64,000 nt of DNA from Yuukianura sp. NJ FZ-2021. Lineage: Eukaryota. Below, piece after piece: positions 9,142 through 51,890 of the stretch (the first letter of the stretch is position 1; every line of letters starts with the position of its first letter). The notes under the pieces are model-generated. The model was given only the letters and a program-made list of their open reading frames with translations, was not told the origin of the DNA and searched no databases. The DNA lies in NCBI GenBank assembly GCA_046563655.1, contig CM102288.1, positions 5,084,001 through 5,148,000 on the forward strand, in the 5' to 3' direction. A program made the position numbers and the translations under genes.

Positions 9142-12100
9142 CTATTCAGTGGGTTTTACAGGCTGCAGATTCCACACGTCGCCACCAACGTTAATGTCCT
9201 GCCCAGTGGCGCTGGGTTCCGGAGCCACAAGTGCTGCCGCTGTAGGTGGCTTGGGCGTAGTTCCACTGTCTCCACTTCCGCCAAATAGCAAAACTAAAAC
9301 AAAAACGAAAATCAAAAACTGAAAAACGAAACTTCGTAAAAACCAAGAAAACTTATAATGAAACCATAAACAAAAACTGAAACGTCTAAAGAAACAAGCC
9401 AAGCACAAGAAAGAAGAAAGCTTTCTAGTTTCTACAAATCAAACCACATGCTTACTTAAATCCACAACAAAATACTTCCAAATCAATTCATTCATCCATA
9501 CACATTCCACATTCCGTTATACTTCCACGACCAACACTTAACTGCAACCGAGGTTTCAGCTTCAGTTTCGTTGGCCTGTGAAAAGTTAGTGAGATCAATT
9601 GATTGAAAGCTGATTACTTTGAGTTTCTCCGCAACAAGCAGTGGCTTGGCATCGAGAGATAGAAGGATATTTGTTAGTCCAGTACTACTATTTCACTACT
9701 ACACTTAATTAGTAAACTTAAGCTAATACAGGGATTAGTTCTCACTTCAAACTTACTCAGCAAATGGCAAAACAACAAAGGCCATTCCTCTTATTAGGCT
9801 CAACTCTACACATACCTTAACTCTTGATTAACGTTAGTTAGCAACTGATTGACGATGATTTAGGAAGCAGAGGGCCTTAGTTAATGGGTTTCAAATTCCG
9901 TTAGTCGAACGTTTAAAACAGCGTCGCTGATGAGGGATGAAGAGCATGACAAAGTGAGTTCGTTAGTAGTGGACAGAGGTTGTGAACTTGGATGAAATTG
10001 TAGAATACTGGAATGATCTAACTTGTCTAAATTGTTGTACAGTAGCACAGTGTCCAACTTCCCTTTGCCTTCCAAAAGTTCTTTTACATTCATTCTATGT
10101 TCTGCCGCCTTACATAAAGTTACCTGCCGGATTCCAGGCACACAGAGTTCAGCAAAGACAGGAAATTTAGCAGAGAAGGTGAGATGGAAATGAGAAAAAA
10201 AGAAACAAATGATTAGAGGCCACAATTTACAAGAATTGGACCGGGATTGGTAAGGAATTAAGCGGAAGTGAAAATGCAGAGAGAGGTATTGTCATGTTTC
10301 AGCTAAAGTTCCCTCATCCTGGCGATTTCTCCAGTATCACCACTACTGGCGACATCTACACTCCTACAGTCATCTCTACAAACCAAGGTGATTTTAGATA
10401 GGAGAGGCAGGGAGAATGGAAATGACATTTGGAACAGGAGTTACAAAGCAGTAGCTACTGGAAACACAAAGGTTAGGAAAGAGAACAACGTTTGCCTGGT
10501 TCCCTCGACTGGTGTTTTGCCACAAGTAGTTTAGAGACAGGGTGAACAGACATGGGCGGATCGATGCGACTGAACAGAAGATGTGTCCAACTAGTATTGA
10601 GTTATTAGCTGAGCAGAGTTAAAAGGAAGAGCAACAACAACGGAGAAAAGGTCACTTCTGCACACAGAGTGACGGCGACAGAAAGGAGGAGAAAGACTGG
10701 GAGGTTTCTGTTAGTAGTGACACTAAGATCCTGCACGAGATGTGGGCTAAGGTTGGTGGTTGACTCTGGTCAACTTCACATGAACTTACTTGCGATAATG
10801 ATGATAATTATAAGACCAATCACTCCCATTATGATCATCATCTGAAACACAAATCAATACAATTCATAAGTTCATTGATTCATAGATCTTCGATTATCAA
10901 TAAGTGGGTGGACATTAGGAAGTTATGAGTCACTCACTTTCAAGTTTTTCCACCAGTACTTCCTTTTCAGCTTGCCCGCCTGCTGCTCAAATTGCGAGGC
11001 CCCTTGTTGGAGTGCATCTGAAACAAAACAAACATTTATTAGCCACCAGTAGCATGACGTTGAAGGGAATGGCATGAAAAGTCATCATCGTTCCCACTTT
11101 GATCACATAGGAAATCGATAAGCTAAGCAAAGGCTAGAGATATGGACAGAAGCTTAAAGTGTTCAAAGATTACAGAGTCACTTTGGTGCTCTTTCTGCCG
11201 TAAAATAAACAGAATTGACCACAGCTGTTGTAACTAAGCAAAAGAAACAAAAAACAGAGATGATAAGCATCGCGTGCGGTTGAAGAAGCTTAATAAAATT
11301 AGGGAAAACTGAGAAGCAGTCAGTCAAATAAACGGATGTTACAGTTAAACGGTAATAATTGCAGCGGACAAAAAACAGAAAGTAAATTGGAATGGAAAAA
11401 GATGAATAGTAACCGGCTCTGTCATCCAATTCTGAGAGCTTCTGATCTCGTTCCAGCACTTTCTCCACGTTCGTCCGCATTATGTCCACCACCTAATGGG
11501 CACAACAAAGTCCAATTTCCAAGTATTCCATCCTTCATCGTCGTTCATTAGATTTAGATTATGAAACGCAGCTGAGTGACTTAGACAAGAACGACGAGCG
11601 AAGACAACCATAACTAACCCCATGAGTCATTTCAATATTCCCAAAAATTATGAAACCATGAAAACTTTAAGACCAAACACCGTCAAACATTAGCCCCAAA
11701 CATACAGCCGTTTTAGCGCCAAATTCTAAAGAGTCAATTGCGAAGTGATTCATCTAACAGTCGTCCCTAAAGTATCCGGGGAAGTTAACTCTTTGTTTTG
11801 TTTTATGTTGACATTGAATCTGAAATATTGCCAATTTGAAGGTTAAGCTTGGGATGAGTTACCTGATCTATCATCCAGTTCTGATAGTCTCTTGTCTCGT
11901 TCTAAAACTTTTTCAACATTCAATCGCATTACGCCAATCACCTGCAAGATAAGAGGGACAGGATATAAAGGCCATTTGACGATTCGCCTTTGACGTATTG
12001 ATCAGGCCAAAAAATAATTTAAATCGCGCGATATTCGTTATATTTGGACCCTTGAATCGAATCATAACAAACACTCCCACTCTAAGTTTGAAAATGCGCC

Positions 12101-12512
12101 TCGCATTTTGGTAATTCAGCTTTTTGATTGATTCTGTATGATTGGCGTTATGATTCTTCGCTCCAACGTTCTAGTGTCACCAAGCAGATACGTGATGAGG
12201 CAACCCTTGTTAGTTGCTTATAAATTGTTTCTGACCTCATCAACTTGAGCCTGCGTCTGTTGAAGTCTTCGTTGGGCAGCTTGCTGTTGATGTGTTCGTG
12301 GACCCCCCACAATGGGTTCGCCCCCACTCGTTTCCCCACCAGGAGCCGACCTGCAATTAGGAATAAGAATTAAGGAATTTCATTTCCGCAATCTTTTACG
12401 CAACAAACCGTATCATTCTAGCGTTAACTGAAATGATTGATTGTACAAGTAACTGTCACAAACGAGTGACATTAGATTGTCTATGTCTAAAGTTTAAGTC
12501 TAAAACTTACAT
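9142..12512 (-). CDS. Syb: Synaptobrevin / VAMP (R-SNARE) with duplicated alternative SNARE exons and alternative C-termini
   Basis: Split start AT|G at 12511-12512, exon 12236-12350 (..[15 protein letters not shown]), alternative exons 11863-11941 and 11414-11492, exon 10938-11017 ([26 protein letters not shown]), TM exon 10790-10841 ([17 protein letters not shown]), distal exon 9142-9293. Confidence 0.95.
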
Positions 12513-13076
12513 GACTGAGAACCTCTTTGGAGAGAAGAGATGACGAATTAACGGAAGGAAGAGTACCAGAAATGATTGATAAGTTGACCTTTCTCACTTG
12601 TGTGGTTGCTGACTAAATTGAAACTGACGAATTGTGCAGTTGAAGTGGTTAGTTGATCTGATAGAATAGAGATAACGAGGGAGTCTATGCAGTAAGAGTA
12701 GGAGTGATGAGTAACCAACACCTACAAACAGTATGGCGCTGCTCCCCTTCCCCTGTCAATCAACTCCAACCTCAGTCGAACTAAAGCACACACACAAACT
12801 CCGCTCTGCAGGCGACGGGCATCACTCAATCAATAAGCAATCAAAGCAATAATTATCGTCTATCAAACGACAATAAGTGCATTGAACTCTCCTAAGATAA
12901 ATTCTCCTAGTGTGGTTTTGTTTTAGAATGTTTTAAGGATTTACCAAATGTGCTTTCGATAGAACAATTATTGTGCAGTAATAATTCAAGCACCCTTGGT
13001 AATTTTCACAGGCCTGACTCACTTACAGTAAGGATAAACTGTATCTGTTGTGACTACTGTGAAACCAGCCGATGTA

Positions 13077-13369: not shown

Positions 13370-13555
13370 TTAAGGACAAGAGTAGAGGCAAAATTCAAAT
13401 TCACGGTTGCATCCCGTCAAATTGGATTTACATTTTTTCAACTGGTTTCGGCAAGCCAATTGACATGTAGTCGTGGCCGCTTCAACGATGTCCGGAAAAA
13501 GAGCAACCATGGCAATGGTCAGAATCAAAATGGAAAAAATCCGAAGCATGAACAT
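13370..13555 (-). CDS. Small secreted cysteine-rich peptide (61 aa, 6 Cys)
   Basis: Real ATG, hydrophobic signal peptide ending VEA, mature region C-x3-C-x6-C-x6-C-x6-C-x3-C. A 5' UTR intron (donor ~13674, acceptor ~13576) and upstream TATA/Inr support a real transcription unit. Confidence 0.7.
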   Translation of the reverse strand: MFMLRIFSILILTIAMVALFPDIVEAATTTCQLACRNQLKKCKSNLTGCNREFEFCLYSCP

Positions 13556-16085: not shown

Positions 16086-17732
16086 TTACACTTTCCAAGT
16101 TTCCTGTATTTCTGGATACTCCAGCAGCAGAATGTCACACATTTCAGATTCTACTGAACCTTTCAGTCCTTTATGTAAAATATCATAAGCTTCTTTGGCA
16201 TAAATGACTGTGTTGAATGACTGTTCTTCCATTCCTGTTACCACCAATCTTAGATCCTCCAGATCCCTCGCAGCTAACCATCGATGAAACCGAACTCTTC
16301 CTGCAAATTAAACAAACTTCAATTTAATAATTAAGATTTAAGACAACAGCAATTTAAAAGTTCATATTTAGGACAAACTGAGATTGATGTAAGAATGTGC
16401 TGGAACGTTTTGCATTCGAACTTACGAAAATTAACGTACCGACAAACATGTAGTATGATCCAGGAAACAACTTTTCAAGTACTGCCAGTACTTGTTCTGC
16501 GCAGGTAAATTTTGTTTTCAATTCTCCTTCTGAGTGGAGTTCCTGTATCTGACAGATTTGAAACATTTCTTGAATGATGAGAGCGTGATTGGGGTGTAGC
16601 CACTTTTCTTTTTCAGTTCTGCTAAGCGTGAGATTGACTGTGTCTTATCGATTGTGGCCAGTTTAGCTTCAACATTCCTCAATTGGATGGAGATGCTTGA
16701 CGATGCTTCGTCGTCCAGAACTTGATTGCAAGTCAAGCATTTCCACTGGAGACCATTCCATGGAGCGAGGCTAAAGTTGGAGCATGATGGGCACAGAATG
16801 GAGCTGAAAAACGAACCGAATTCGGTGGGATCTGAACATCGTTGACAAGTGCAGACGAATCCCCGGGATGAAAGGAGTCGATATCTCTCCGAGGCTGAGC
16901 TTAGAACGGGAACATAGGTGTTCGTAATCGCTTCTCCCGCTAGAATTTCCTTGGCTGCCATGACAACAACCCGGGAGCCTTGCGGGTCAGGGTCAAACTG
17001 GATATCGGTGTTCATGCAACAGGAATGAGCCATGAAGGAACCTAAAAAGTACAAATTCTCAACACTCTTTTGCTTCCGAAGCTCACTAAAAGCATTAGTT
17101 CTGAGGACTCCGAGGCAGTGAGCAGCATTTGTTAGAATGCTCGCAGTATTTTCATGGATACTCATGGCATTGCGGGCTGATTCCACTGGTTTTGAATTTG
17201 GTGACTCAAATAGGTCCCACGACAGAAGTGACATTGCATGGTACAGAGTCTGTGACGACCATGCCGAGGTCACCGACATGGATTTAGTTTTCGAAACGTT
17301 TGAAGATTGTAGTTCATTAATTTGTGTCCATTTTAAGGGATGATGTCGTTTGGTGGCCAAGGAGCGAATGACATTGATGAACTGGTAGAGGTCGTTCTCC
17401 TTATGCAAAATTCCTAGAAGACTAGGGATAGTAGAAAAGATGCGACATTCGATGTCATGTTCATGTGAACCATCCTCGAGACAACTGTGTGAACAAAATG
17501 ATAAGAAGCATTTGGAACATTGACATGCTAATGAAGTGTTGTACACGGAAAAACAGACTAGACAAACGGCTTCCGAGGAATCCAGAATAGCACTGGGACT
17601 TGGTCCCTGTACAATCGCTTCTTCGTCAATGATTACTTCTCCTGCACGGATGTCTCTTGCTGCAACTAAATGTCTTCCAAGCACTCCGTTCCATTTGATA
17701 GTATAGGGAGGTTGTTGATCCTGCATTTGCAT
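16086..17732 (-). CDS. SET and MYND domain protein (SMYD/SmydA family), with apparent frameshift near 16605
   Basis: GRHLVAARDIRAGEVII, MYND cysteines (CLVC..CSKC..FCS..C..H..EC), FMAHSC, GEAITNTY, FVCTCQRC. The C-terminal LHPNH motif lies in another frame; last exon ~16086-16300. Confidence 0.85.
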
Positions 17733-18799
17733 TGTTTCTTTGCTTCAGTCGTCTACAACCTGCTAGTTCAGAGATAATTTCTTATAGTTAGGTTTGAATT
17801 TTCCAATGGACTTTGTTAGTAAATTACTTTTTTAACGGTTGATAACTTACCTTCTTACCGCAGAAAGTAATTGAGTTGACGATGTAAAACTTTTTGTCAA
17901 ATTGAGATTTTGAGAATTGATAAAAAGACCGGGTGGAAGTAAGGTATAACGACTATCGTCGTAACCTGAAGGGTGGACAGAGCCAATCCGCCCATCTTAT
18001 GTGGGTACAATAGGGACTACACTACAGCTAGTGAAGAGATTTGTAGCCGCTAAAATCTAAAAACACAACGTATCCTAAATCGGCTACACATGTAGCCGCA
18101 CACCTACCGTTGGTTGATTTACTATGGTAAACTATGATTTAAAACTGTATTTTGGTCAATAAAAACGAGGTTTTGGTTTTTGTGTGTGTTTTTATACAGC
18201 AAAACATGAAATTGAACAAAAACAGCACAAGGAAACTTTAAGTTGACAATTTCCATTTTCCTATGTGTAAGTTTTTCCCACTGGCGTCTACAACACTATA
18301 TAGCAATATTTAATTTAACAAGAGGCTTCAAGTTTACGATCTCTAAATCGATGAGAACAATGTAATTCATATACAAAATCCAGATTTGATTTGATTTAGA
18401 CAAAAAAAAAAGACATATTGATGAAACAAAAAACCATTGTTTTTCTATTTTTTGACAAAAAAAACAAACAAAAGCTACCGACACAAACCGACCACAGCCT
18501 AGCCTAAGTACAAAGATTGTAGCCTCAAAGTGGCTACACCTTGTGGCTACGCCGTGTGCCTACAACTATGAGAGTTAAAGGTTACTCCAACCTAAGAGCG
18601 GGAGGAGGAAGGAGGGAGAGAGACTCCACCCGCGCGGGACTCCTCTTCTGTCTCGTCTCTCTCCTTTCTTTTTTCTTGTCAATCACTTGCTCAGTAAATT
18701 TCCAACGGTAAACATTTCCATTTTTCAATATCTCCGTCGTCCGTGAAAATCGAAACCAGATCAAGGGTGTTACAACTGGTTTTTTCAAACGGCTCTAGT

Positions 18800-49558: not shown

Positions 49559-51094
49559 TTAAACTTTCGTTGGAATAGATTGTGGATTGAAGAAGAAGTT
49601 GTCTGGGTCGTACTTTCGCTTGACTTCAACAAGCCGTGGCAGATTTGTTCCAAAATAGCGTTCGAGTGGTTCCTCTAGGTCCAAGTCGACATAATTTTGA
49701 TAAGATTCCTTGTGATCAAAAATTTCCTTCCCAGTATCAAAGAATTTCTTCAAATATTGAGCAATTTGATCATGGATAGTTGAATTTTGAAAATCTTGAT
49801 CGTGGTAGTTAGCAATAATGTTGTAAAGCGTTCCATTTCTGTGAACAAATGCTGTCGCATTTTTTGGAATTTCGGCAACTGCTCCACCGTAACCTTCAAA
49901 GTAAATCAGCATATTCGTAGGCATACCGTCGACAAGTTTTTGAAACTCGCGAATTTCCGCTGCTCCGAGTTTCTTATTCACGTAAAACGATTTTCTTTGC
50001 TGAAAAATTTTGCCAGGAGATTTTCTGTCTAGTTTTGCCAAATCCGAGGCCGTTTCAAGTTTAACTCCTTCAGATAAAATTTCTCCTGAAAATTCCTTCC
50101 CATTTCGAAACAGAAAATCTTCGTAAGTCAAAAACTGTTTTGTTAAATTTCCGTTTTGTGGAAACTCGCTCAAGATTTTTTCAAAATTTGTGCTTTCACC
50201 AGTCCAGTCCATGAATTGCACAAAAACTTCTTCTCCCATTATGTCGAGCTCCATGGACAAGTCATCTGGTGCTGCCTGGACAACGTGTTGCCATTCACAG
50301 AACACTTCTGGAAATGAAGTACGTTCAAACGACAAAGTTCCCATGAACATCGTTTTTGGCGCGGGGTAAACTTTGAATTTGAATTTCGTGACAATTCCAA
50401 AATTTGATGCAACTCCACCACGCAAAGCCCAAAACAAGTCAGCATTTTGGTTTTCGTTGACCGTCAGAAGTTGACCTTGCGCAGTGACGATGTTGACCTC
50501 CACGATATTGTCCAGCGCTAGACCAAATTTTCTGACAAAAAAGCCCTCCCCACCGCCAGTAGCCATTCCAGAGATTCCAATCGTTGGACAAATCGCGAGC
50601 GGTGTGAAAACTTGTCCAAGTTGAAACAGTTTCCATGCCAACGGACCAGTTAACATTCCCGCACCAACGGTAGCAATCATCTTCTTTTTGTCAATATCCA
50701 CCCATTCAAAATTTCTTACGTCGACAATCACGGAATGCGAATTTCCAAATCCAAATTTTCCGAGCGAATGTCCGCCACCTTTCGGCACAAGTCGGATTTT
50801 GTATTGCTGAGCACATTTTACTGTACTGACAATGTCTTGTTCAGTGTCAGCCACAACGTATGCTAAAGGACTTAGGTTTTCTCCGTTTGCTTGCCATTGG
50901 TAGTTCAGATCTTGGTAAATCGCTGAATCGCATCGGCGCACAATGCTGTCCGACTTCACTCCCAACTTTTTCAAACACTTTTCAAAAAAGTCGTAATCGC
51001 ATTCACCCAAACTCTCAGTTTTAGAAATTTCTTGTTCACCAGTAGCCAGCATTAGCAAGGCGAAATGTATCAAAAGTGACTTCAGTTTAGTCAT
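49559..51094 (-). CDS. Secreted FAD-linked oxidoreductase, berberine-bridge-enzyme-like (intronless, 511 aa)
   Basis: Signal peptide; KGGGHS, VGAG, CPTIGISGMATGGGEG, GLALDNI, DLFWALRGG..NFGIVT, C-terminal YQNY.D..YFG.NL.RL..VK.KYDP.NFF..PQSIP (BBE domain). Confidence 0.93.
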   Translation of the reverse strand: MTKLKSLLIHFALLMLATGEQEISKTESLGECDYDFFEKCLKKLGVKSDSIVRRCDSAIYQDLNYQWQANGENLSPLAYVVADTEQDIVSTVKCAQQYKIRLVPKGGGHSLGKFGFGNSHSVIVDVRNFEWVDIDKKKMIATVGAGMLTGPLAWKLFQLGQVFTPLAICPTIGISGMATGGGEGFFVRKFGLALDNIVEVNIVTAQGQLLTVNENQNADLFWALRGGVASNFGIVTKFKFKVYPAPKTMFMGTLSFERTSFPEVFCEWQHVVQAAPDDLSMELDIMGEEVFVQFMDWTGESTNFEKILSEFPQNGNLTKQFLTYEDFLFRNGKEFSGEILSEGVKLETASDLAKLDRKSPGKIFQQRKSFYVNKKLGAAEIREFQKLVDGMPTNMLIYFEGYGGAVAEIPKNATAFVHRNGTLYNIIANYHDQDFQNSTIHDQIAQYLKKFFDTGKEIFDHKESYQNYVDLDLEEPLERYFGTNLPRLVEVKRKYDPDNFFFNPQSIPTKV

Positions 51095-51890
51095 GTTGAC
51101 GGTAAGCTGGGTTTTTAAGAAATTTCTTTTGCGCGGCGAAAGTGGAGCACTTCCTTATGTACCTGACTTGACTTTTTAGTTACATGCTAAATATAAAGTA
51201 CCAGTTGACTAATTGGGCCAGCAAATTAAAAGCACATTTGATAAAGCACTTTTGACAGCTTTAATATGTAGTAAGTCATGAGCATTTGAACTAATTACTG
51301 CAGTAATTAACTTTTGGCACAGGGTATTTTCCGGGTAAGTATGCAAAGTATTCAGGATAACTGTAATAAAACTTTTCTTAATTAACATTAACATTAATGC
51401 TTACAACAAATTGCTCTAGAAATCAATTACTGGTAAATGGGAGTGGCCTAATTTCCAGCAAACGCAACAAATTTCCTTGTACTTAAACTACAAAAACCAT
51501 ATGTACTTTAAATGATTGTTTTATTAAACGTTGTAACTATGGACATTATACATCTTATGAACTCTCGTAGACTTTGAACGCTCAACTATTTTATATTTCT
51601 GAATTCTATTCCAAGTGTCTTGTTAGAGAGTTAACTACAAATATGTTGCTAGTAACTACATGCTGATATTTTTAGTTCACTTTTTTCCCTCTTCAACTAT
51701 TGTTTTTTAAGTGTAGTAACACTAACACTCAGAACAGGTCTAACTAAAACGTTCTAAAAACTCCTTCTAAAAAACCTATCGTTTAACGTTAGTAGAAACA
51801 TGTTTTTGAAATAAGGGAGTGTAACACGCCGGAGTAATACAATATGCCTGCTATTTTTTGTGCAAATTGTTTTTCTTTCGTTACAAAAAT

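Follow-up and report, generated by a model that had tools for sequence, protein, structure and literature searches.

The stretch of DNA analysed here, called the window throughout, comprises 64,000 nucleotides of Yuukianura sp. NJ FZ-2021 (assembly GCA_046563655.1, contig CM102288.1, positions 5,084,001 to 5,148,000). This 64-kb window holds a single synaptobrevin/VAMP (R-SNARE) gene, which lies on the minus strand and whose third coding exon is present in two tandem copies, designated 3a and 3b. Synaptobrevin is the vesicle SNARE (v-SNARE) that acts in neurotransmitter release, and any one synaptobrevin gene is usually assumed to encode a single, fixed SNARE motif. We propose, with a probability of about 85%, that this one gene makes two v-SNAREs, identical except in the N-terminal half of the SNARE helix, through mutually exclusive use of exons 3a and 3b. 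The exons are given below; a slash marks an exon-intron border, positions are those of the window, and G-type and D-type refer to the first residues of the third exon (VVGIMRxN and VVDIMR/KTN, respectively).

12511..12640, minus strand: 3' end of exon 1, a 5' untranslated region ending in the AT of the start codon (...tcagtcAT/gtaagt, at 12512-12511)
12236..12350, minus strand: exon 2, the G of the ATG and coding sequence, ending ...GAT GAG/gt at 12236; tblastn with P0007, the closest relative protein, gave 95% identity over 39 aa
11863..11941, minus strand: exon 3a, the upstream alternative, of a derived G-type (cag/GTG ATT ... AGA TCA G/gtaact)
11414..11492, minus strand: exon 3b, the downstream alternative, D-type and n-Syb-like (tag/GTG GTG ... 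AGA GCC G/gttact)
10938..11017, minus strand: exon 4, starting cag/AT GCA at 11017 with (D) and matching positions 42-67 of the Pfam profile PF00957
10790..10841, minus strand: exon 5, the transmembrane segment, directly after ...KYWWKNLK, placed by translation and tblastn
9142..9293, minus strand: exon 6, the last coding exon, ending PVKPTE with the stop codon TAG at 9144-9142 and then the 3' untranslated region; tblastn match to the C-terminus of P0007

The ATG is split by an intron, the G that opens exon 2 completing the start codon, and the synaptobrevins of relatives start M-S/A-A/T-P-G-G. The C-terminal transmembrane anchor that follows the SNARE motif in synaptobrevin is present and is encoded by exon 5.

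Exons 3a and 3b are 79 nt each, bounded by AG and GT, entered at phase 0 and left at phase 1. They are identical at 57/79 bases and 19/26 residues, with seven residues differing, and their alignment ends at the exon borders, the flanking sequences being unrelated. A tblastn search of the whole window with each exon peptide found these two loci alone (E 2e-13 and 4e-10), and the next best match had an E of 0.96; the similarity is therefore far beyond chance. The original prediction for this locus had described two such paralogous exons with these borders, phases and seven differences, and its coordinates and translations proved exact. The exon pair is real. A third, decayed copy in the introns was also considered and was rejected, as the local alignment scores fell within those of shuffled sequences (12 to 115 of 200).

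An in-script splice test gave no stop through exon 5 when either 3a alone or 3b alone was included. With both exons in, a stop appeared within 3b (offset 68), and with neither exon a stop appeared within exon 4 (offset 48), so that the frame is broken either way, as had been claimed. The two exons are incompatible in frame, and synaptobrevin can therefore be made solely by inclusion of one of the two. A double or skipped message would be a target of nonsense-mediated decay or would yield a truncated protein, because its premature stop lies upstream of later exon junctions, and we presume that such mis-spliced messages are removed by this decay. In the proposed arrangement, either 3a or 3b, and one only, would be spliced between exon 2 and exon 4, with exclusivity enforced at least by the reading frame.

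The swapped segment makes up the first half of the protein's fusion helix. Both exons matched the Pfam family Synaptobrevin (PF00957) at profile positions 15-40, where exon 4 takes over at 42. Exon 3b scored 30.5 bits and exon 4 scored 32.2 bits, the whole-protein cut-off being 26.4; exon 3a alone scored 26.1 bits (E 7.5e-6), just below this cut-off as a 26-residue piece. Aligned to rat synaptobrevin 2 (1SFC, chain 1sfc_A), both exons covered residues 42-67, with exon residue 15, an Arg in 3a and in 3b, at position 56 and exon residues 17-19 at the Q-K-L segment. We take position 56 to be the zero layer with its central Arg, and the swapped stretch presumably extends from SNARE layer -4 to layer +3 and takes in the complexin-contact surface as well as the Q-K-L segment cleaved by clostridial toxins. 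The earlier statement that the exon covers the zero-layer Arg and the toxin-cut Q-K-L bonds agrees with this numbering.

The two exons differ at positions 2, 3, 4, 7, 17, 18 and 26. In the presumed heptad register, the core residues V1, M5, N8, V12, R15, L19 and L22 are the same in 3a and 3b, and position 26, at the +3 layer, changes from Ala in 3b to Ser in 3a. Seven of the eight core layers would then be unchanged, with the differences at positions 2, 3, 4, 7, 17 and 18 presumably at surface or flanking sites. Because of these shared layers, both isoforms should remain able to form SNARE complexes. A functional difference between them is predicted to lie in how the N-terminal half zippers or in the binding of regulators, and the two are probably used in different cell types. 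Residue counting put the net charge at 0 in 3a and at -2 in 3b; the 'variant net charge about +2' of the original prediction is thus correct as a difference and not as an absolute charge.

Substitutions between 3a and 3b were concentrated at synonymous sites. The proportion of differing sites was 0.74 at synonymous sites (pS; 14/19, saturated) and 0.14 at replacement sites (pN; 8/59), with a Fisher p of 1.9e-6. Exon 3a compared with the corresponding exon of a relative (L001, described below) gave a pS of 0.72 and a pN of 0.084 (Fisher p 2.3e-7). In a neutral simulation that started from a 3b-like exon and applied 16 or 22 random substitutions in 20,000 trials, an open frame, intact AG/GT borders and seven or fewer residue changes occurred together in 0.9% of trials with 16 substitutions and in 0% with 22. 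Saturated synonymous sites beside constrained replacement sites, together with the open frame and the intact borders, indicate that 3a has not been long unused. A dN/dS estimate had been suggested as a check on this exon, and by these measures it is under strong purifying selection and is not a dead copy.

Relatives were collected by sequence searches. A profile built from two contiguous read-through open reading frames (ORFs; 46 and 52 aa, intron-derived residues included) was searched against 1.84 billion representatives and gave 1339 matches at E<=1e-3, the results being taken from the best 150 of the 1339. A full-length search with P0007 gave 3098 matches at E<=1e-20, and among the best 120 of the 3098 the closest named proteins came from the springtails Orchesella cincta and Folsomia candida. 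In a metagenome scan at least 596 stretches matched, mostly via intron-derived patterns; one locus (L001) was confirmed, and more relatives may exist.

Exons resembling 3a were present in several of these relatives. In P0025, an ORF on a 652-bp contig, the exon is identical to 3a at 24/26 residues, and the flanking read-through residues match at only 4/20 positions upstream and 3/6 downstream, indicating that conservation is confined to the exon and that the surrounding intron sequence is unrelated. L001, a 1278-bp metagenome contig of a relative, contains a closely related exon 2, with 71 of its last 81 nt identical, followed after an intron of 830 nt by an AG/GT-bounded 79-nt exon beginning VVGIMRLN. 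P0203, a protein from the full-length search that is encoded on a 1.3-kb transcript-like contig, represents a message spliced from exon 2 to a 3a-like exon alone and on to exon 4, and carries the R18 and S26 signature of 3a. Identity to 3a was graded, at 20/26 for Orchesella, 21 for L001, 22 for P0203 and 24 for P0025. A further G-type isoform, P0210, belongs to the clade with the same transmembrane segment as the window gene. Lack of conservation of 11863-11941 in related species, combined with an absence of spliced reads, had been named as grounds for regarding it as a dead duplicate; P0025, L001 and P0203 all keep a 3a-like exon. Low GC content at third codon positions (GC3), common to 3a and the L001 exon, was tried as a sign of orthology and rejected, since L001 exon 2 also has a GC3 of 0.28.

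Both exon types were found beyond these close relatives. In eight named species (two spiders, two isopods, an amphipod, a springtail, a mayfly and a thrips), one gene model contained both copies:

Hyalella azteca: two-copy model, KAA0202893.1
Armadillidium nasatum: two-copy model, KAB7506010.1
Armadillidium vulgare: two-copy model
Ephemera danica: two-copy model, KAF4533369.1
Frankliniella occidentalis: two-copy model, KAE8750352.1, with the first copy starting from residue 5 and its G-type inferred from 'RVN'
Orchesella cincta: two-copy model
Larinioides sclopetarius and Argiope bruennichi, spiders: two-copy models

The order was the same in 8/8, with the G-type copy ('VVGIMRVN'-like) upstream and the D-type copy ('VVDIMRTN'-like) downstream. 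In the eight arthropod models P0022, P0023, P0024, P0031, P0192, P0195, P0262 and P0297, both exons were fused via invented linkers or intron read-through. Such models are errors of annotation, and they conceal the exon pair. Two-stretch models from nematodes (P0026, P0190) and a rotifer (P0191), as well as P0051 and P0099, look like fused whole neighbouring genes and were not counted; the two-stretch protein P0033 was likewise set aside.

The brine shrimp Artemia franciscana offered annotated isoforms. RefSeq lists eight (X1-X8, XP_065560706 to XP_065560714), of which X1/X2, X3/X5 and X4/X6 are identical save for this exon, VVDIMRTN... in one and VVGIMRVN... in the other. These three pairs were the sole exact same-gene pairs among 156 spliced single-exon proteins examined (18 G-type, 137 D-type). 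The same exon is thus swapped at the Artemia locus and in the window, with two differences. The Artemia G-type and D-type exons differ at 3/26 residues, whereas 3a and 3b differ at 7/26, among them residues of the Q-K-L segment and the final residue. In Artemia, moreover, the transmembrane exon too comes as an alternative pair (P0013/P0014, P0175/P0177), MWLIIGVIAIVVLIIIII versus MMLIMGGVGLILLVIIII; by tblastn no second transmembrane exon is present in the 64-kb window.

Selection on 3a, the spliced message P0203 and the Artemia isoform pairs give comparative support to the mutually exclusive use that had been predicted, and the exon pair is very probably functional. The original prediction had viewed 3a as a variant duplicate. 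This view has to be revised: 3a is not a young copy, as the G-type/D-type pair occurs in the eight named arthropods with the G-type first. On this comparison we regard exon 3a as the window lineage's fast-evolving descendant of an ancient arthropod G-type exon, with the lineage-specific changes I2, V4, L7, K17, R18 and S26.

A wider interpretation, which we offer tentatively and consider possible rather than probable, is that the G/D pair was ancestral in arthropods, before the chelicerate/pancrustacean split, that the fly genes c-Syb and n-Syb arose from a duplicated gene in which one exon each was kept, and that the window's G-type exon encodes a distinct, retuned v-SNARE core with its own zippering or regulator binding. 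In this retuned core the Asp at position 3 would be lost, Lys-Arg gained at the Q-K site beside the central Arg, and a Ser placed at the +3 layer. Apart from this scenario, the upstream G-type exon resembles the ubiquitous Syb and the downstream D-type exon the neuronal n-Syb. The exon signatures would match those of c-Syb and n-Syb, Drosophila c-Syb presumably being of the G-type. The original idea that splicing takes the place here of the fly Syb/nSyb gene pair fits the exon signatures (upstream G-type and downstream D-type in all eight models). In Drosophila the two are separate genes, whereas here and in the eight named arthropods they are alternative exons of one gene. Fly c-Syb and n-Syb are reported to split post-Golgi and synaptic-vesicle fusion between them, yet can replace each other (PMC8377282).

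Several observations weigh against the proposal that both exons are in use. All eight of the closest transcript-like proteins (P0007-P0012, P0182, P0183) are of the 3b type, with the exon identical to 3b; for this reason 3b is probably the major form, and 3a is at best minor or tissue-restricted. The GC3 of exon 3a is 0.27, the lowest in the gene (0.37-0.69 in the other exons) and near the intron composition (intron GC 0.38), which fits weak expression. When longer proteins were searched for the 3a peptide, none that carried it at full length came up, the 3 matches among 21 candidates all being bird VAMP1, in a collection where isoforms more than 90% identical would be hidden in clusters. The L001 contig ends 202 nt past its 79-nt exon, which could be that species' sole copy. 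The two-copy models are mis-joins and are therefore evidence for the DNA arrangement and not for splicing, and the RefSeq Artemia isoforms may rest partly on model building. For this organism, use of exon 3a is itself predicted by comparison.

The predominance of the 3b type and the intron-like GC3 would also agree with 3a being a relic, the pair having once been alternatively spliced and 3b alone being used now while 3a decays; lineage-specific residue changes are, moreover, more numerous in 3a than in other G-type exons (20-24/26 identity of 3a to its relatives). Such decay is very improbable, given that pN is far under pS, that every core-layer residue but one is kept, and that the open frame, the AG/GT borders and strong splice signals are all retained (pyrimidine fraction 0.85 and donor CAG/gtaact at 3a; 0.65 and CCG/gttact at 3b). 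The derived R18 and S26 signature recurs in P0025 and in the spliced P0203, and these changes therefore predate this species and appear to have been kept under selection. Strong constraint at replacement sites also speaks against a 'poison' exon, a frame-shifting cassette that needs no protein-level conservation. Exon 3a would then be co-included with 3b, shift the frame and lower synaptobrevin output, with no second protein. The stop that falls within 3b when both exons are included and the stronger splice signals at 3a would suit such a role, but relatives have in-frame 3a-only or G-only messages (P0203 and the Artemia isoforms), and we find it hardly credible.

Under mutually exclusive use, 3a would need repression where 3b is used, because the splice signals at 3a are the stronger. 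Known splicing-factor motifs offered no lead, with no GCAUG in the region and unremarkable YCAY, YGCY and U-rich motifs. Two candidate RNA elements, both speculative, were found in the introns:

12134..12152, minus strand: candidate intron-2 element, complementary at 13/14 positions to the opening bases of 3a (pair I6) and at 14/17 positions to 11691-11707 (pair I4)
11691..11707, minus strand: candidate second partner in the intron between 3a and 3b (pair I4, 14/17 complementary)

Competing pairings of the docking/selector type, in which 12134-12152 would bind either the 5' end of 3a or 11691-11707, might direct the choice. No shuffled sequence out of 100 reached 13/14, and the stem of 12134-12152 closes both the minimum free energy and the centroid folds. 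The overall fold, however, had a z-score of -0.11, with 83/200 shuffles folding at least as well; RNAduplex gave ordinary energies for pairing of the introns with the 3' splice-site regions of the exons (31/200 shuffles doing as well); and some 12 combinations of exon and intron might each have seemed meaningful. In L001, the one related genomic sequence compared, the start of the exon matched the intron before it at 11/14 positions at best, within the null. The search for docking/selector pairings that had been recommended thus yielded complementary elements (13/14 and 14/17), without an overall fold signal or an L001 counterpart, and we retain them as a lead, while considering it unlikely that they direct the choice. 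Separately, an A/C-rich stretch at 11786-11803, some 60 nt beyond the 3' end of exon 3a, shows complementarity at 16/18 positions to the exon 4 pyrimidine tract at 11021-11038 (pair I2). This pairing would loop out exon 3b; both sequences are of low complexity, so the match may be due to chance.

Many arthropod genes contain tandem mutually exclusive exons, and clusters with docking/selector RNA pairing are known in Dscam1, 14-3-3xi and Mhc. Like these, the present pair consists of tandem homologous exons of equal length in an arthropod gene; unlike these, it has two exons only, and frame incompatibility alone could enforce exclusivity. Among SNAREs, the vertebrate precedent for mutually exclusive tandem exons is SNAP-25 with its exons 5a/5b (PMC2581893). 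Both cases involve a tandem-duplicated exon pair of a neuronal SNARE gene that is used, or here proposed to be used, in a mutually exclusive manner and swaps part of the SNARE helix. SNAP-25 5a/5b belongs to a Qbc-SNARE and is confined to vertebrates, whereas the present pair lies in the R-SNARE synaptobrevin and is common to arthropods. The mechanism is of an already known kind and not a new one.

No description of the synaptobrevin/VAMP exon pair was found in the main text of openly searchable papers, including some on mutually exclusive exons. The earlier remark that such a pair was not known to have been described for a VAMP gene therefore agrees with the literature found, but the Artemia isoforms are already annotated in RefSeq. 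If this exon switch is old and conserved, arthropods would obtain two v-SNARE cores from a single locus. The pair would serve as a natural experiment on the contribution of the N-terminal half of the helix and, if the tentative scenario above holds, would be the likely origin of the division of labour between fly c-Syb and n-Syb. It also carries a warning for annotation: in present-day gene models the two exons are often wrongly joined, as the eight named species show.

Three other reading frames on the minus strand of the window were recorded. About 0.9 kb upstream of synaptobrevin exon 1, a 61-residue ORF at 13370-13555 has a signal-peptide-like start and six cysteines (MFMLRIFSILILTIAMVALF...CQLACRNQLKKCKSNLTGCNREFEFCLYSCP) and may be a small secreted peptide gene. 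At 16521-17744 lies a 408-residue open frame with a SET domain. At 49562-51154, an uninterrupted 531-residue ORF encodes FAD_binding_4 and BBE (berberine-bridge-like) domains, and the clusters nearest to it contain giant-virus, bacterial and fungal members together; as an intronless oxidase of an arthropod genome, it could have been acquired by horizontal transfer.

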